Assembly: GCA_022508565.1 (NCBI GenBank)
Contig: JAFLUY010000008.1
Span: 9,325 to 73,324 of the forward strand
Direction of reading: 5' to 3'
DNA from: Erysipelotrichales bacterium
GTDB taxonomy: Bacteria > Bacillota_I > Bacilli_A > RF39 > UBA660
Length of the DNA: 64,000 bases
The notes beneath the pieces were generated by a model that searched no databases, had not been told where the DNA came from, and saw nothing but the letters and a program-made list of their open reading frames with translations. A program made the position numbers and the translations under genes. Positions 2,691 to 54,994 of this stretch are shown in pieces (within the stretch, counting starts at the first letter, position 1; each line of letters opens with the position of its first letter).

Positions 2691-3337
2691 AAACCTTAAT
2701 GGAATTTATTCATGAATCATTAGAACACCAGCAGTTCATTACTGAACATTTTGTAAATGTTTTCAAAAAAGAAGATATGAAGAAATATGGTGATGAAGTT
2801 TGGAAGATGCTTCAAGATGCATATAAATATTGCGGTGGTGTTGCTGGAGCAAAATCTATTGATGATATTATCGATGACACAGATATGTGGAAAATGGTTC
2901 GCCGCAATGGTAAATTAACAGCATTTAAAGCATATAAGCTAGTCAATGGCGGTCGAAAAGCTAATTGTGCTGCAACCGATAGAACAGATCAAGGCATTGC
3001 TGATATGAAGAAGATTTATCAAGAAGATGGACTTCTTAAAGATCGTAAAGCTTATGCAGAAGTTTCAGGTAAAGCTTTATCAACTTGTCTTAACCAAGGA
3101 AATATTCCCGTTCCTGCTATAGTTGCTAAAGAAATTCTTCAGAAAGATCTTACTCCATGTGAAGATGGCTGGTTCTATACTAGAAAACTTGGAGATGGAA
3201 ATATGCATCATAAGCTTCTTGTTGGCAATCCTCCCGGAGTAGATAAGCAAGAAGAACCTTCACCTGAACTTGTCAAGCAACTTAAAGATCTAGCAAGAAA
3301 ATATCATGAAGAAGATGAGAAAAATAAAAAGAAATAA
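2687..3337 (+). CDS. hypothetical protein with CTS-like N-terminus (MKTLMEFIHE)
   Basis: 216-aa ORF with an ATGA start/stop overlap with the upstream gene. The C-terminus is lysine-rich. Confidence 0.65.
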   Translation: MKTLMEFIHESLEHQQFITEHFVNVFKKEDMKKYGDEVWKMLQDAYKYCGGVAGAKSIDDIIDDTDMWKMVRRNGKLTAFKAYKLVNGGRKANCAATDRTDQGIADMKKIYQEDGLLKDRKAYAEVSGKALSTCLNQGNIPVPAIVAKEILQKDLTPCEDGWFYTRKLGDGNMHHKLLVGNPPGVDKQEEPSPELVKQLKDLARKYHEEDEKNKKK

Positions 3338-3352
3338 TTTTTATAATATATT

Positions 3353-3817
3353 ATGAAAAGTTTAGTTGAATATATAAAAGAATCAATGTCATGCCCGATT
3401 TGTGATTTTGTTAAAAAATACCAAAAGACAATTTATGCCAAACGCGATACTTGGGGCAGAGTTGTTTCTAAAAATGATTTTGATAATCTTTGGGAATTGA
3501 AAGACGATGGATCTTTCTGGAGAGAAGTTGGAGGCAAGAAAATAGATAAATCTGGAGCAAAACTTAATGGCCCATGGGTAAAATTCTATTTAGAAGATGA
3601 TGAAGATCCAACAATCGAAATCTATCTCGATTTAGAATTTGATGCCGAAGATTGGGATTCTAATGGCGTTCAAATTAGTTTTGTTGATGGTGATAAAAAC
3701 GGAACCGTTGGTCCTATCTTTGTAAAATCAAACGAAAAAGAATTATATGGATCTGAAATAGCATATGAAATTTCTAAAGATTATGCTCAAGAAATTTACG
3801 ACAATATTGTAAAATAA
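3353..3817 (+). CDS. hypothetical protein with CTS-like N-terminus (MKSLVEYIKE)
   Basis: 154-aa ORF. Confidence 0.65.
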   Translation: MKSLVEYIKESMSCPICDFVKKYQKTIYAKRDTWGRVVSKNDFDNLWELKDDGSFWREVGGKKIDKSGAKLNGPWVKFYLEDDEDPTIEIYLDLEFDAEDWDSNGVQISFVDGDKNGTVGPIFVKSNEKELYGSEIAYEISKDYAQEIYDNIVK

Positions 3818-3823
3818 ATTATT

Positions 3824-4213
3824 ATGGAACGTTATTCTCATAATACGATGTCGTATCTCAAACCTAGAAAGTGGTGGATGCGATTGATAAAAATTATGAG
3901 TAAATGTCAAAAGAATTCTATTGAAGAACAATATAAAAATGGAATAAGACAATTTGATCTTAGAATCGCATTTATTTTAAATAAAGATAAAATTCATGAG
4001 CCTATTTTTTGTCACGGAATAATAGAATTTAGAGATTCTAATATAGAAAATATATTAAAGTTTCTTAGCTCTAAAAATGATGCATATTGTAGAATTATTT
4101 TAGAAAAAGGAGATGATACTTCTAAATATTTTTTTGAACTATATGTCACTCAGTGGTTGAAAGAATTTCCTACTCTTAAAATTATTCAAATAATATCTAA
4201 AAAAGAAAAATAA
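3824..4213 (+). CDS. short PLC-like phosphodiesterase (PI-PLC X-domain-like) fragment or mini-protein
   Basis: SHNTMSY near the N-terminus and GIRQFDLRI...CHG resemble the catalytic-His and G[IV]RxxD[IL]R motifs of PI-PLC/GDPD TIM-barrel enzymes. At 129 aa it is too short for a full barrel. Confidence 0.35.
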   Translation: MERYSHNTMSYLKPRKWWMRLIKIMSKCQKNSIEEQYKNGIRQFDLRIAFILNKDKIHEPIFCHGIIEFRDSNIENILKFLSSKNDAYCRIILEKGDDTSKYFFELYVTQWLKEFPTLKIIQIISKKEK

Positions 4214-4228
4214 CTATAATATAATAAA

Positions 4229-4582
4229 ATGAAAAGTTTAATTGAATTTATTCGTGAGCATAATCTTAATGAATCTAAACGTACTGAAATACGTATAGAA
4301 GTTAATGATATAAAAGGCTCTGAAGATTTTTTAAGTAAATTGAAATCTTCTTTAGATTCAAAAGATATCTATAATGAAAAAATCGATAGTGGATTAAAAT
4401 TTGCTATCCAAGGAGACAATAAAGAAAAGTATCAAGATGCTTTAGATATTCTTAAAGGATGGGAAGAAGGTAAAGAAAAACTCGAAGGTCCTATTACTGA
4501 ACTTGAAGCCTGGATTACTGAGGAACCAGAAGAAAATGAAGAAGATTTAGGAGAAGATGAACCTGATGATGAAGATGAATAA
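4229..4582 (+). CDS. acidic protein with CTS-like N-terminus (MKSLIEFIRE)
   Basis: 117-aa ORF with a poly-acidic C-terminus (EEPEENEEDLGEDEPDDEDE). Confidence 0.65.
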   Translation: MKSLIEFIREHNLNESKRTEIRIEVNDIKGSEDFLSKLKSSLDSKDIYNEKIDSGLKFAIQGDNKEKYQDALDILKGWEEGKEKLEGPITELEAWITEEPEENEEDLGEDEPDDEDE

Positions 4583-4615
4583 TTTTTAATTTTATTATTT
4601 TATAATTCATGTGAT

Positions 4616-4652
4616 GGATAACTTAAAAAAATAAGTTGTCCATTTCTATTTT
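4616..4652 (+). terminator. rho-independent terminator (weak T-tract)
   Basis: Stem ggataactt (4616-4624) / aagttgtcc (4633-4641) with one G-U pair, followed by atttctatttt. Confidence 0.45.
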
Positions 4653-4670
4653 ATAAAAAATATAATAAAT

Positions 4671-5699
4671 ATGAATAATTCTTTTGGAAATATTTATAGG
4701 CTTACAACATTTGGAGAAAGTCATGGCCCTGCTATAGGAGGAATTATTGATGGGATTCCTTCTAATTTAGATATAAATATCGAAAAAATTCAATTAGCAT
4801 TAAATAAAAGAAAGCCAGGACAATCTTCACTATCAACTCCACGTAAAGAAAATGATATCGTAGAAATCCTTTCCGGTATTTACAAAAATAAAACATTAGG
4901 TTCCCCAATTGGATTTATCATTCGTAATCATGATATTAAGTCGAATGATTATGATGAAAACATATATCGTCCGTCTCATGGAGATTTTACTTATGAAGCA
5001 AAATATAAAATAAGAGATTATCGAGGAGGAGGTAGAGCGAGTGCCAGAGAAACCGCTTGTCGGATTGTTGCAGGAGAGATCGCAAAACAAATATTAAATC
5101 AAATAGCAAAAATAAATGTTTATACTTGTATTTCTCAAATCGGAAATATTAAAATAAATGAAAATTCTGATAATGAAATATTTAAAAAAGAAATAGAAGA
5201 CGAAATATTAAAGGTTAAAAAAACAGGAGATAGTATTGGAGGTAAAATTTCATGTATTATTGATTGTCCTGTTGGTCTTGGCGAACCAGTATATAATAAA
5301 TTACAAAGTGAATTATCTTCAGCAATGTTTTCTATTCCTGGAGTCAAAGGTTTTGAATATGGGTTAGGATTCGATTTTTGTAATAAAAAGGGATCTGAAG
5401 TAAATGATGAATTTTATTCAGATGGAATTAATATATTTACTAAATCAAATAATTCAGGAGGAATACAAGGAGGTATAAGTAATGGGCAACCGATATATTT
5501 TAATGTGGCATTTAAACCTACTCCTTCGATTTCTATAGAACAATCAACAATTGATAAAGATTTAAATAATATACATACTAAAATTAAAGGAAGACATGAT
5601 CCTTGTATCGTACCTAGAGCTCTTTATGTAGTAGAAGCAATGACCTATATAGTTATGCTCGACCAAATTATGATGAATCGATCAAAATCATTTTATTAA
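4671..5699 (+). CDS. aroC: chorismate synthase
   Basis: FGESHG, RPSHGD, GGGRASARETACR and GGISNG motifs. 342 aa is typical for AroC. Confidence 0.9.
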   Translation: MNNSFGNIYRLTTFGESHGPAIGGIIDGIPSNLDINIEKIQLALNKRKPGQSSLSTPRKENDIVEILSGIYKNKTLGSPIGFIIRNHDIKSNDYDENIYRPSHGDFTYEAKYKIRDYRGGGRASARETACRIVAGEIAKQILNQIAKINVYTCISQIGNIKINENSDNEIFKKEIEDEILKVKKTGDSIGGKISCIIDCPVGLGEPVYNKLQSELSSAMFSIPGVKGFEYGLGFDFCNKKGSEVNDEFYSDGINIFTKSNNSGGIQGGISNGQPIYFNVAFKPTPSISIEQSTIDKDLNNIHTKIKGRHDPCIVPRALYVVEAMTYIVMLDQIMMNRSKSFY

Positions 5700-19643: not shown

Positions 19644-20726
19644 ATGACAGATCAGGAACTAATAAAAAATATTCAAAAACATAAGAAAATACTTTGGGAA
19701 AAACATTTAACAAAAGAAGAATTAATCTATTTAGAAAATAGATTTGAAAAATTTAACTCATATGCAGAGTCTTATTATAGAATATTATATAAAATAGAAG
19801 AAATGCCAAAATGTCCAGTATGTAAAAAAACATTAAAATTTATTTCATTAGGCAGAGGCTATGTAAATTTCTGTTCTCATAAATGCGCAGCAAAACATAA
19901 TCAAGAGCATTATAGAGAAATTTGTTTAAAAAGATATGGAATTGATCATCCATTTAAAAGTAAAGAACTACAAGAAAAAATTCATTCGAAAGAAATGTCT
20001 GAATATCATAAAAAGAAGTCATTGGAAAAATGGGGTACTGAACATCCGATGCAATCTGAAAAATATAAAAAATATTTTAAAAAATGTATTGAGAAAAAAT
20101 ACGGAAATGGAGTAACTAATGTTTGGCAGGCTGAAGAAGTTAAAAAGAAATTAAAAAATACATGGTTAGAAAAATATGGGACATCCGTCCCTAGTAAATC
20201 AGAAGAAATAAAAGAAAAAATTAAACAAACAAATTTAGAAAGATACGGAGTAAGTTGCACATTGCAAATTCCTGAAATTAAAAGTCATACTAATACTCCA
20301 GAAGCTCAAAGAAAAATTCATGAATCTAAGAAAAGGAATGGTAGCTATGGATATTCTAAAAATGAGCTTGAAATTTTTAATAAATTAAAAGAAAAATTTC
20401 CAAAAATTATTTTTCAATATTTAGATATTAATAGATATCCATTTAAATGTGATTTTTATATTCCTGAATTAGATTTATTTATTGAATACCAAGGATATTG
20501 GACGCATGGACCTAAACCATATAATGATAATGATGAAGATTGCCTCAAATTTGTACAAAAATTAAATAATAAATATTTAGAAACTAATAAAAAATGTTAT
20601 TTAGATGCTGTTGAATCATATACTATAGGTGACGTAAATAAAAGAAAAGTAGCCCAAGAAAATAACTTGAACTACTTAGAATTTTTTAATATGAATGATT
20701 TTTATTATTGGTACAACAATCTTTAA
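19644..20726 (+). mobile_element. free-standing homing-endonuclease-like gene (Zn-finger + 5 x KYG repeats + Vsr/DUF559-like PD-(D/E)xK C-terminal domain)
   Basis: CPVCKK...FCSHKCA zinc-finger-like motif. Five tandem [KR][YW]G...QSxE...K repeats. The C-terminus SKNELEIFNKL...CDFYIPELDLFIEYQGYWTHG has a D...E-x-Q/K nuclease-like core. Its stop codon overlaps the stop of the convergent rimK-like gene. Confidence 0.45.
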
Positions 20727-47022: not shown

Positions 47023-48498
47023 ATGAAAGTGATCAAACGAGATGGTACTATCCAGGAATTTGACATCAAGAAACCTATTGAGGCTTTCAAGAAGCCTTTT
47101 ATAAATGGTTTGCAGAGAGAAGTTCCGGAAGGCTTACTTGAAAAATTTGAAATTGAACTCGAGAAGTTCATAAACAAACAAAAAGAAGAAGTTAATATTG
47201 AAGAAATTCAAGACTTCATTAGAGATTTCTTAATTAAGAAAAATCAATATGAAGCCGCTGAAAACTTTATTCTTTATCGTGAAAAACGAAATGAATATCG
47301 CGAAAAGAATACCAAGCTTCATAAGAATATTATTACAAAACTTTATGCAAAGAATATTGAAAATTCTAATGCAAATATGGATGAAGCCTCATTTGGCGGT
47401 AGAGTAGGTTCAGCAGCTTCAGAAGTTTGTAAAGATGAAGCATTAAAATTAATGTCAAGAAAGTTTAGAAAAAATCACGAAAATAATGAAATCTATGTTC
47501 ATGATTTAGATGCATTTTGCGACGGGCGCCATAACTGTTTGTCATATCCGATAGATAAATCCCTTAATGAAGGATTTTCTACTAGACAAACTGATGTTCG
47601 TGAAGCTAACTCTATATTGACTGCTTTGCAATTAGTTGCCGTACAATTTCAGTGTCAATCACTAGAGCAATTCGGCGGGGTTGCGGCAACACATATAGAT
47701 TGGTCAATGGTTCCATTTGTCAGAAAAAGCTTTATGAAACATTTTAAAGATGGGTTAGAATGGATTGGCTTATTCAATTGGAAAAAAGAAAAAATAGATA
47801 AATATATTAATGAAATTATTCCAGGAATAGAAAATAAGGATTCGGAAAATCCAATTCGTAGAACTTTAGCTATAGAAAAGAGTAAATATATTTTAAAGCA
47901 ACCCTGGTATAAATTATTTAAGAAATATAGATTACATAGAGCATATAAATATGCATTAAAGAAAACTAAAAGAGATACTTATCAAGGAGTAGAAGGACTT
48001 TACCATAATTTAAATACACTTCAATCAAGATCAGGATCGATGCTCCCGTTTAGTTCGATAAATTATGGTACATGTACTTTACCGGAAGGCCAAATGGTTA
48101 CTGATGCTATTCTTGATGTGACTATAAAAGGTCTTGGAGAACATGGTGTAACATCAATATTCCCTTGTGGAATTTTTCAATATAAAAAGGGCGTTAATGA
48201 TAAACCTAGAACACCTAATTATCATCTTTTTAGAAAAGCTCTTAAATCAACAGCTAAGAGGATTTATCCAAATTATGCAAACTGTGACTGGAGTAATCAG
48301 AAATCTTGGAAAGAATATGATTTGAAAATTCGTACAGAAGTTCTTAATGAATTGAATGAAGATGATACCGAAAAACTTATTAGTAAAGTCAAGCAAGATC
48401 CAGAATTTGCATTAGATCATTTTAGATTAATATATGATTATTATGGATTACATGTTATTGAAGAAGAACTCCCGATCGAGTTATTTTCAACCATGGGT
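47023..48498 (+). CDS. nrdD: anaerobic ribonucleoside-triphosphate reductase, exon 1 (ATP-cone + N-terminal catalytic part)
   Basis: ATP-cone start MKVIKRDGTIQEFDIKK. The class III RNR body follows. The exon ends ...ELFSTMG at a U (48498). Confidence 0.8.
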
Positions 48499-48768
48499 AA
48501 GCGAAATACTACAGCCCATGTAAAATTCCGTGAACCAAGCTTATTGGGTGTGGCTTAATAAAGCTGCTAACGGTTAGGTCCTAATAGGTGATGCTAAGGA
48601 TGAGACCGTGCTAAGATTTAAAGATTCATTCTTGAATAAAGTGTATCGACTATCCCTGATGAATGTAAGGGAGTAGGATTGGAGATAAGCACCAATTCCA
48701 AGCGCGGAACATTTATTTAATATAAATGAAGATATAGTCAGTACAAATAGTAATATTTGATTAATATG
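48499..48768 (+). ncRNA. group I self-splicing intron, ORF-less (about 270 nt)
   Basis: The 5' splice site follows U48498 and the intron ends with G48768. P1 pairs exon CAUGGGU (48492-48498) with internal guide GCCCAUG (48514-48520), placing a U-G wobble at the splice site. A long-range 7-bp helix joins 48526-48532 and 48703-48709. Hairpins occur at 48653-48672 and 48710-48728. The segment is visibly G+C-richer than its flanks. Splicing restores TMG|CRTANGG. Confidence 0.7.
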
Positions 48769-49827
48769 TGTAGAACAGCGAATGGTGGAGATATTTGGTT
48801 TAAAAATTCATTTGAAAAGAATTTAAAAGCTTGGATAAATGATGAGACTCTTTATGACGATATTATATCAGGTTGTCAAAAGGATGGTCGTGGAAATATT
48901 TGTCCAGTAACAATCATTCTTCCGACATTAGCAATGGAAGCTAAAGAATATATTGAGAAGAAAACCGAAAACCCAACTAAAGAAGAATATAAGAAAGCTT
49001 TTATTGATTTATTGACAAAGAAAATTCATGAAGCTAAAGATATGCTTATCGAAAGATTCGAACATATAGCTTCCCAATCTGCCGCATCGGCTAAATTTAT
49101 GTATGGAAATAAAACAATGTCAGGTTATGTTCCAGAAGAAGGAATACAATCAGCACTTCGTCATGGTACTATAGTTATCGGTAAAATCGGATTAGCGGAA
49201 GCATTAATTATTCTTATTGGAAAGGACCATTCAATTAAAGAAGGGATGGAATTTGCTAAAGAAATTGAAACTCTTTATAGAGATCTCTGTGCAAAATTTA
49301 AAGAAGAATACAAATTTAATTTTGGAAATTATAATACTCCAGCAGAATCACTTTGTCATACTTCATTAAAGAAATTTAGAGATAAATATGGTATCATTCC
49401 AAATGTTTCCGATAAAGAATATTTCACTAATTCTATTCATATTCCTGTACATAATAATAATATAAATATCTTTGAAAAAATCAATAAAGAAGCAGAACTT
49501 ACCGGATATTCTAGTGCTGGTTGCATAACTTATGTCGAGATGGATAGTTCAGCGGTAAATAATATTGATGCTATGGAAAAAATAGTTACATACGCAATGG
49601 ATAAAGATATCCCATATTTTGCTTTAAATTTCGATTTAAACAGATGTGCAAAATGTAATTATCAAGGAGGAGACATTAATGATGTTTGTCCTAAATGTGG
49701 AAGTCAGGATATTTTAGAACTCAAACGAGTAACAGGCTATTTGAGTACAACTAAAAAACATTTTAATCCTGGTAAAATTGATGAAGTAGATCATCGCTGT
49801 AAACATGAATCTAAAACAATTTTATAA
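48769..49827 (+). CDS. nrdD: anaerobic ribonucleoside-triphosphate reductase, exon 2 (C-terminal Zn-ribbon and glycyl-radical domain)
   Basis: CAKCNY...CPKCGS Zn ribbon and the glycyl radical motif KRVTGYLST. The ORF-track TTG start at 48757 is an artefact of the intron. Confidence 0.8.
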   Translation, partial: CRTANGGDIWFKNSFEKNLKAWINDETLYDDIISGCQKDGRGNICPVTIILPTLAMEAKEYIEKKTENPTKEEYKKAFIDLLTKKIHEAKDMLIERFEHIASQSAASAKFMYGNKTMSGYVPEEGIQSALRHGTIVIGKIGLAEALIILIGKDHSIKEGMEFAKEIETLYRDLCAKFKEEYKFNFGNYNTPAESLCHTSLKKFRDKYGIIPNVSDKEYFTNSIHIPVHNNNINIFEKINKEAELTGYSSAGCITYVEMDSSAVNNIDAMEKIVTYAMDKDIPYFALNFDLNRCAKCNYQGGDINDVCPKCGSQDILELKRVTGYLSTTKKHFNPGKIDEVDHRCKHESKTIL

Positions 49828-50476: not shown

Positions 50477-51019
50477 ATGTTAGAAAATATGAAAATTGCT
50501 AGTATAACTACTTGTGATATAAATAATGGTCCAGGGATTCGAATGACTATTTGGATTTCTGGATGTTCTCATAATTGTCCTGGATGTCATAATCCAGAAC
50601 TCCAAGATTATGACTTCGGTAAATATAAACTATTGTCTCCTGAAGTTTTTGAAAAAATTGAAAATGAATTAAATAAATCTTATATAGACGGAATAACATT
50701 TTCCGGAGGAGATCCTTTAGACCAAAATAATCGTTCATTAAGAGAATTAAAAACTTTTTTATATTATCTTAAAAAACATTGGCCGAATAAAAAAATATGG
50801 GTTTATACTGGCGGAACTTATGAAATTTTAAATAAAATTGCAATTATAAATCAAGTTTTAGATTATGTTGATGTTTTAGTAGATGGATTATTTATACCAG
50901 AAAAAAGAGACATAACATTACCATTTCGTGGTAGCACCAATCAAAGGATTATTGATATCCAAGAAAGTAAAAAACAAAACAAAACAATTATATTAGAAGA
51001 TAAACTTTTTAGAACTTAA
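50477..51019 (+). CDS. nrdG: anaerobic ribonucleotide reductase activating protein (radical SAM)
   Basis: DINNGPGIR...ISGCSHNCPGCHN matches NrdG's C-x3-C-x2-C cluster context. GGDPL motif. 180 aa. Confidence 0.85.
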   Translation: MLENMKIASITTCDINNGPGIRMTIWISGCSHNCPGCHNPELQDYDFGKYKLLSPEVFEKIENELNKSYIDGITFSGGDPLDQNNRSLRELKTFLYYLKKHWPNKKIWVYTGGTYEILNKIAIINQVLDYVDVLVDGLFIPEKRDITLPFRGSTNQRIIDIQESKKQNKTIILEDKLFRT

Positions 51020-54256: not shown

Positions 54257-54994
54257 ATGAATAATTTGAATAAATTTAGCGCGATCACTAAAGAAGTTCT
54301 AAAATATTATGTTTATGTTTTAATAGATCCTAGAGACAATTATATCTTTTATGTGGGAGAAGGATATGGAGACAGAGTATTCGATCATGAAAAAGAAGTA
54401 GAAAATAATTATTGTCCAGAAAAAGAAAAACATAGAAGGATTAAAGAAATTCAAGATGCTGGATTAAAAATTATAAAAATGATTGGCCCTTCTAATTTAA
54501 GAGATCAAAAAGAAGCACAAAATGTAGAAACCGGAATCTTATGGATTTTAAAATTACAAGGACATAAATTGACGAATATTCAATCAGGACATCATGAAAA
54601 TTATTTTAAATTTAAGACAGTTGAAGAAATCGAATATCAGTTAGCGACAAATTTCATGGAACAAGATAAAAATGATAAAATTATTTATGTAAATGTATCT
54701 CGTTCATTAGATTTAAATAAAACCTACACAGAAGACGAATATAAAGAGTTATTTTTAGGAGATTGGATAATTGACAAATATAATTTAGAAAAGGCAAATA
54801 AACTATGCGTTTGCTATAATGGAATTATTAGAAAAGTATATTCAATAGATTCATATATTCCAGTTAGCAAAACAGGCGCAGGAGCTACTAAATGGAAAAT
54901 AAAAGGAGAACCTATTGATGATTCTCCTTATTTATATAAACGACATAATTTTAGTTTTCGGTATTGTAGTACTGGAGTCAGATTTTTTGAATGA
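54257..54994 (+). mobile_element. free-standing GIY-YIG homing-endonuclease-like gene
   Basis: YVYVLIDPRDNYIFYVGEGYGDRVFDH is a GIY-x10-YIG core with the downstream Arg. The stop lies 2 nt from the stop of the convergent structural gene. Confidence 0.65.

Follow-up and report, generated by a model that had tools for sequence, protein, structure and literature searches.

A predicted 270-nt group I intron without a gene of its own splits a gut phage nrdD immediately before the catalytic cysteine codon

The 64,000-nucleotide stretch of contig JAFLUY010000008.1 analyzed here (the window) contains nrdD, the gene of a class III ribonucleotide reductase (RNR), which is called in the list of open reading frames (ORFs) as two genes, 47023-48558 and 48757-49827. 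We describe the insert between the two coding segments (Table 1), which from its sequence is a 270-nt group I intron without a gene of its own, splitting this gut phage nrdD immediately before the catalytic Cys codon. Exon 1, ending ...ACC ATG GGT at 48498, encodes an ATP-cone and the N-terminal half of NrdD (Pfam NRDD profile positions 2-249), and exon 2, opening with TGT AGA ACA at 48769, supplies profile positions 272-562 and the Gly_radical domain, with which both a protein alignment (A1, below) and matches in the PDB concur. The insert is preceded by a U, has a G (48768) as its last base and, as an earlier note on this DNA had remarked, is richer in G+C (35.9%) than the exons it parts (31.4% and 30.2%) and than the window as a whole (26.9%). 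Neither exon has a frameshift, every invariant NrdD residue is kept, and nrdG is intact downstream.

Joining 48498 to 48769 gives an 844-aa NrdD that is similar along its full length to class III reductases of known structure (8P23, E 2.7e-102; T4 NrdD, 1H78, E 5.7e-60). Uninterrupted NrdD homologs number in the thousands, and alignment A1 sets the spliced protein beside 14 contiguous ones (13 plus T4 NrdD), a check that the earlier note had proposed. The junction FSTMG/CRT (the slash marks the insertion site throughout) is gap-free, and M491, G492, C493, and R494 are invariant across the 14 homologs, an agreement well past chance, which bears out both the restored ELFSTMG/CRTANGG joint and the conservation of MGCR in class III RNRs that the earlier note had mentioned. 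The T4 NrdD stretch aligned to the junction is PMGCRS, such that Cys493 aligns with T4 Cys290, which we take from the T4 structure to be the thiyl-radical cysteine.

Table 1. Features of the nrdD locus in the window (helices as 5' strand / 3' strand).
Feature	Coordinates	Strand	Description and evidence
nrdD exon 1	47023..48498	+	492 codons, ends ...ELFSTMG; ORF list, Pfam, alignment A1
Group I intron	48499..48768	+	270 nt, no own ORF; RF00028 30.8 bits, family model R1 94.4 bits, all helices form
P1	48492-48498 / 48514-48520	+	CAUGGGU with GCCCAUG, 7/7 pairs
Internal guide	48509..48520	+	CUACA-GCCCAUG; P10 strand 48509-48513, directly followed by P1 3' strand 48514-48520
P10	48509-48513 / 48769-48773	+	CUACA with exon-2 UGUAG, 5/5 pairs
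P3	48526-48532 / 48703-48709	+	UUCCGUG with CGCGGAA, 7/7 pairs
P3.1	48535-48538 / 48544-48547	+	Extra hairpin, provisional name; forms in the window copy
P3.2	48552-48556 / 48561-48565	+	Extra hairpin, provisional name; forms in the window copy
P4	48570-48574 / 48605-48609	+	P4-P6 domain (48570..48642)
P5	48578-48582 / 48597-48601	+	P4-P6 domain
P5a	48585-48587 / 48594-48596	+	P4-P6 domain
P6	48610-48612 / 48640-48642	+	P4-P6 domain; relatives' endonuclease gene lies in the P6 loop
P6a	48624-48628 / 48633-48637	+	5-bp hairpin, all that the window copy holds in the P6 loop
P7	48648-48652 / 48735-48739	+	3' strand within GAAGAUAUAGUC; Rfam alignment of GAAGAUAUAGUC
P7.1	48653-48657 / 48668-48672	+	Falls within the 31-nt stretch shared exactly with the T4 nrdD intron
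P7.2	48676-48682 / 48692-48698	+	Covaries at 4/7 pairs
P8	48710-48716 / 48722-48728	+	Followed by J8/7 and the P7 3' strand
P9	48744-48749 / 48754-48759	+	GUAA tetraloop, then 9-nt tail and terminal G 48768
nrdD exon 2	48769..49827	+	352 codons and stop, from the Cys493 codon (CRTANGG...) to the glycyl-radical C-terminus
nrdG	50477..51019	+	Radical-SAM activase, NrdD partner; Pfam Fer4_12, Radical_SAM; context, outside the intron

Helix elements were placed by homology; the window copy pairs completely, without a mismatch, in all 15 helices. The borders, the 5' splice-site U and terminal G, the P1 helix with its U-G wobble, and the long-range helix that proves to be a perfect P3 had all been proposed in the earlier note, together with several hairpins, and each is found in the sequence. 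P1 is closed at the cleavage site by the U48498.G48514 wobble, of which U48498 is the 5' splice-site U. A minimum-free-energy fold alone recovers P1, P3, P4/P5, P7.1, P7.2, P8, and P9 (z = -2.55), and the group I core is complete, in that the P3-P8 and P4-P6 domains and the P3/P7 pseudoknot all form. As in subgroup IA2, extra hairpins P7.1 and P7.2 lie between the P7 5' strand and the P3 3' strand; however, J3/4 does not lead directly from P3 to P4 as in the T4 sunY intron, and two covarying hairpins, P3.1 and P3.2 (48535-48565), intervene between the P3 5' strand and J3/4-P4 (GCUAA-P4). The predicted intron belongs to subgroup IA, and we file it as IA2-like (T4 sunY-like) rather than canonical IA2 because P3.1 and P3.2 depart from the classical drawing.

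The locus belongs to a large family inserted at the same codon boundary. A sequence pattern spanning P7/P7.1 retrieved at least 106 loci from IMG/VR, and a script put the intron at [ST]MG/CR[TAS] in at least 73 IMG/VR phage contigs (74 of the 107 listed sequences, counting the window). Fourteen of the 74 same-site copies listed are ORF-less (242-304 nt, after the 3' splice site of one, L078, initially 212 nt, was corrected) and 60 have inserts (520-1135 nt). What is inserted is mostly a GIY-YIG gene (MWIYKITNIQNNKVYIGQ...), often decayed, which occupies the P6 loop or, in some copies, the loop of P3.2. The earlier note had called the 270-nt copy minimal; it is indeed ORF-less, but it is not unusually small for the ORF-less members. 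A second lineage at MG/CR is sunY-like and without P3.1/P3.2, and includes the intron of Escherichia phage JSE.

We examined covariation in alignment A2, which comprises 42 distinct cores of the window type and has the P6 loop masked out. Standard pairs fill 97.9% of the 2802 pair cells, compared with 83.1% in shuffled alignments and 37-43% with slid partners; both sides have changed in 32 of the 67 pairs, and the covariation score is 0.430 versus 0.142 in shuffles, with none of 500 shuffles attaining any of the observed values. Compensatory pairs occur in each of P1, P10, P3, P3.1, P3.2, P4, P5, P6, P7.2, P8, and P9, including 5 of 7 pairs in P3, 3 of 4 in P3.1, 3 of 3 in P3.2, and 4 of 6 in P9. 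The U.G of P1 is kept in 42/42 aligned copies while the outermost P1 pair covaries, the P9 loop is GNRA in every copy, and the P10 strand of the guide changes in step with the choice between the synonymous Cys codons TGT and TGC.

A covariance model (R1) was built from the 5' halves of 41 other copies, with the window excluded; the 5' half had not been used in retrieving the loci. Against the 64-kb window R1 gives a single match, full length, at 48492-48615 (94.4 bits, E 7.5e-19), and it reaches more remote relatives with lower scores (JSE, 28.5 bits; T4, 21.3 bits; L004 intron A, 17.4 bits). The window copy thus joins the family both by its Gly/Cys codon-boundary site and by its match to a model built without it. 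The general Rfam model of group I introns, RF00028, had been named as a test in the earlier note, and a 551-nt search yields a local match at 48473-48760 (30.8 bits, E 4.8e-6, model positions 1-253). As yardsticks, RF00028 scores T4 sunY at 105.3 bits, the JSE nrdD intron at 27.5 bits, and an intron at 3091-3403 of a related nrdD locus (L004, discussed below) at 30.8 bits.

Taken together, the sequence evidence makes it very likely that a group I intron of subgroup IA, with no homing-endonuclease gene, occupies 48499-48768, between the Gly492 and Cys493 codons. For the splicing of the window nrdD itself, which we infer from the same evidence, the pre-mRNA would fold into the ribozyme core, and the guide CUACAGCCCAUG would hold both the exon-1 end (P1, with U.G at the cleavage site) and the exon-2 start (P10). 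Free guanosine would attack after U48498, and the freed exon-1 3'-OH would then attack after terminal G48768, ligating the exons and releasing the 270-nt intron. The predicted ligated-exon joint is ...ACCAUGGGU/UGUAGAACA..., in an mRNA for the intact 844-aa NrdD with its MGCR loop restored.

An arrangement of genes in pieces, with two polypeptides assembling without RNA splicing as in the split NrdA of Aeromonas phage Aeh1, would yield a 511-aa product, its last 19 residues encoded by the intron, and a C-terminal piece starting at ATG 48766 or TTG 48757. Both ORFs are open, the ATG formed with the intron terminal G directly precedes the Cys codon, and working split RNR genes are known (PMC3653736). 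However, no Shine-Dalgarno-like sequence precedes 48766, and the ATG is not conserved, as 29 of the 74 family copies listed have ACG as the final three bases of the intron. The break would also fall inside the invariant MGCR loop, and a mere spacer would not keep the fully covarying ribozyme fold of the insert. We regard this explanation as highly improbable, and the two-subunit reading is rejected on the MGCR break, the non-conserved ATG, and the covarying fold. Recoding of some other kind has a negligible probability. Inteins, and a 50-nt translational bypass, are known in phage nucleotide-metabolism and replication genes, but 270 nt far exceeds the known bypass and the RNA fold indicates a ribozyme. 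An intein is ruled out because the frame stops within the insert, after 19 sense codons, at 48556-48558, and the in-frame stop and ribozyme covariation effectively refute the intein and bypass readings together.

Several observations weigh against a splicing intron. The RF00028 score of 30.8 bits is below the gathering score of 50, and the match is absent from scans of the whole window at both the gathering and the E-value thresholds. P7 and P7.1 are invariant in the family and give no covariation signal, in part from the way loci were selected, as their 5' strands are in the search pattern. Splice sites at the other loci were assigned by script, and a few are misplaced (e.g. the L013 type, and L078). 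The exon-1 frame enters the insert for 19 sense codons (KRNTTAHVKFREPSLLGVA) before TAA 48556-48558, whereas most same-site relatives have 0-11 codons there, often ending at the UAA of J1/3. Lastly, a search of sequencing runs found no RNA run with the locus and no spliced transcript, and one DNA run with relatives.

Some of these points would suit a decayed intron, spliced inefficiently, with nrdD a pseudogene or giving a trace-level product: there is no endonuclease gene, no RNA run with the locus was found, the RF00028 score is low, and the late in-frame stop admits ribosomes to the core. Yet every helix is intact and the guide matches both exons, the exons are without frameshift and keep the invariant NrdD residues, nrdG is intact, and the family model scores high, such that we consider decay highly improbable. 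The closest same-site relative, L021, shares the late stop (20 codons). Because the stop is late, translating ribosomes could pass over the P1 3' strand as well as P3 and P3.1 and unwind them, which may bear on the interplay of translation and splicing.

As for the Rfam model, the check proposed in the earlier note gives a local match that misses the curated threshold. E-value-threshold scans with RF00028 of the related loci L004, L005, and L006 also gave no match, and RF00028 is recovered by narrow searches only. Longer input is filtered more strictly, which is the most likely cause of the lost signal in wide scans, so the loss does not count against the intron. The gathering threshold alone would have wrongly refuted the intron; the family covariation and the purpose-built model settle the question in favor of a group I intron.

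The insertion site is polymorphic among close relatives. The nearest NrdD relatives of the window are L004 and L005, which come from one ENA sample (ERZ27293317) and have 81-83% aa identity, and L006 (67%); in all three MG/CR is empty, reading ACGATGGGT/TGTCGC, ACGATGGGT/TGCAGA, and ACAATGGGT/TGTCGC, respectively. A gut metagenome DNA run (X1) contains one contig that spans the 3' half of the intron together with exon 2 and shows 8 differences over 185 nt, and a second contig, from a relative, with no intron and the joint ATGGGGTGCCGC, so that the site is polymorphic within one gut sample. The intron-less X1 joint (window 48497/48775) has synonymous differences precisely at the P1/P10 contact bases, GGG TGC CGC versus GGT TGT AGA.

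The relatives without an insert at MG/CR carry introns elsewhere in nrdD. L004, with 83% aa NrdD identity, has a 1141-nt intron at YVH/DLD (1456-2596) encoding a 279-aa NUMOD3 endonuclease (ORF 1670-2509), and the core of this intron has the P3.1/P3.2 layout of the window copy and a very similar 3' half. The likeness suggests that one ribozyme lineage occupies two nrdD sites in sister phages and, because the YVH/DLD core has the same two hairpins, that the lineage with P3.1/P3.2 may relocate within nrdD by changing its guide sequence only. The second intron of L004, of a different kind, is an ORF-less group I intron of 313 nt at NTL/QSR (HNLNTL/QSRSG; 3091-3403), and L005 has an ORF-less intron at HNLNTL/QSRSG too (4840-5099). 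NTL/QSR is about 5 codons from the T4 sunY intron position, and the window nrdD is contiguous there. In L005 the nrdD variable region additionally contains a segment (3203-4858) with a 484-aa DUF7487 gene (3258-4712), between a 301-aa N-terminal piece and a 46-aa piece; no intron borders were recognised, and it could be either a free-standing gene-in-pieces insert or an intron with an unrecognised core.

A homing endonuclease ORF is lacking in the window copy, in that the ORF list has none of 40 aa or longer inside 48499-48768. Two free-standing genes elsewhere in the window, 19644-20726 (endonuclease-like) and 54257-54994 (GIY-YIG-like), show no BLASTP likeness to the family intron ORFs, GIY-YIG or HNH (E<1e-3), and either is unlikely, judging by sequence, to be the lost endonuclease of the nrdD intron. 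Because the window copy is without its own endonuclease gene it most likely persists by vertical descent; alternatively, it could have spread by recombination or with an endonuclease supplied in trans. In a FastTree of the cores (read for topology only) ORF-less copies are scattered among ORF-bearing ones, with the window grouping with L021 (ORF-less) and L110 (256-aa GIY-YIG), a distribution that would fit repeated gain and loss of endonuclease genes in the same-site family.

The window intron is real and well supported, but ordinary. It adds a further copy to a phage intron family that is very common, and a further instance of mobile introns settling at the best-conserved codon, one essential to catalysis, in a gene of nucleotide metabolism. 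It opens no new question, and its importance lies mainly in annotation. Gene callers report the window nrdD as two truncated genes, as GenBank does for JSE, and the default Rfam threshold misses the intron, with the result that class III RNR genes of gut phages will be systematically mis-annotated as broken. The only feature for which we found no description is the P3.1/P3.2 hairpin pair and the resulting RF00028 blind spot; searching the literature for an element of IA introns under the name 'P3.1' brought up only unrelated work. It is possible, though we are doubtful, that the IA sub-architecture of the window type (no P2, covarying P3.1/P3.2, and an end soon after P9) has not been formally described; if so, this would explain why the whole family is missed at the Rfam gathering score. 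Empty sites, ORF-less copies, endonuclease-bearing copies, and introns of the same type at other nrdD sites of sister phages form a natural series that could serve studies of the gain-and-loss cycle of homing endonucleases.

Group I introns in phage RNR genes, nrdD included, are textbook knowledge, with T4 sunY as the classic case. nrdD is the most often split RNR gene of phages, and Lactococcus phage 949 provides an example of a non-coding intron (Dwivedi et al. 2013, PMC3653736). Among the huge gut 'Jug' phages, which are T4-like and have 27-30% G+C, 95 of 104 genomes have a fragmented nrdD, and splicing of split nrdD has been seen in metatranscriptomes of these phages (PMC12880540). The likeness of the window to Jug phages is by published description. 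Searches for close sequence relatives among deposited phages returned little: megablast of the nrdD region against 50,697 phage records and blastn of a typical family 5' half against phage records gave no match, nrdD is absent from the first 50 kb of the Lactococcus phage 949 record (HM029250), and tblastn with the junction region found only a Thomasclavelia phage NrdD.

Related cores are also present outside nrdD. In Vibrio phage vB_CoeS_P1 (L003) the annotation gives the tail tape-measure gene as two pieces (389-1516 and 2695-3633), and within the gap of about 1516-2695 lies a core that matches the P7-P7' region of the nrdD intron family at 77% identity over 110 nt; the gap is probably a related intron in a structural gene. 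In Clostridium phage CS266P1 (L002) the segment 1797-2572 has a match to the family 5'-half model (1797-1892, 23.4 bits) and a 72-nt blastn match (2501-2572), surrounding an I-HmuI-like endonuclease gene (2029-2517) that lies between two CDS annotated as 'hypothetical protein', which are probably one split gene.

The T4 sunY intron resembles the window copy in its nrdD host gene, in a P7.1/P7.2 core without P2, and in the J8/7-P7' sequence GAAGAUAUAGUC, which is present in both. A blastn search against deposited phages identified a 31-nt exact match of the P7/P7.1 segment (48647-48677) to the nrdD intron of T4, which is established by experiment, and of its T-even relatives, and the P1 heptamers are nearly equal (UAUGAGU in T4, CAUGGGU in the window). 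The T4 intron, however, lies at AYE/YEVNT (L001 2407-3439), approximately 110 codons upstream of MG/CR. As the earlier note stated, it is much larger and contains an ORF: its 1033 nt include I-TevII and further sequence downstream of P9, and there are no hairpins between P3 and P4. It is a true relative at a different site.

In the cultured Escherichia phage JSE (Krischvirus, EU863408), an intron interrupts nrdD at exactly the insertion point seen in the window (...VSPMG/CRSFLG...; L113 1393-2152). The JSE GenBank record (L113 523-3145) lists two nrdD CDS and a 'Homing endonuclease' with no intron feature, and the second nrdD CDS starts at the ATG formed by the intron terminal G. The JSE intron has an IA core with P7.1/P7.2, as in the window, but differs in its length of 760 nt, in the endonuclease ORF in its P6 loop, in a sunY-like 5' half without P3.1/P3.2, and in an extended region after P9, whereas the window copy ends a few bases past P9. 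The uncultured IMG/VR family (e.g. L021, L110, L027, L112) shares with the window the insertion site, the guide logic, and the P3.1/P3.2 architecture, with same-site cores 65-79% identical to the window copy; about four fifths of this family carry an insert, among the matches listed, where the window copy has only the 5-bp P6a hairpin.

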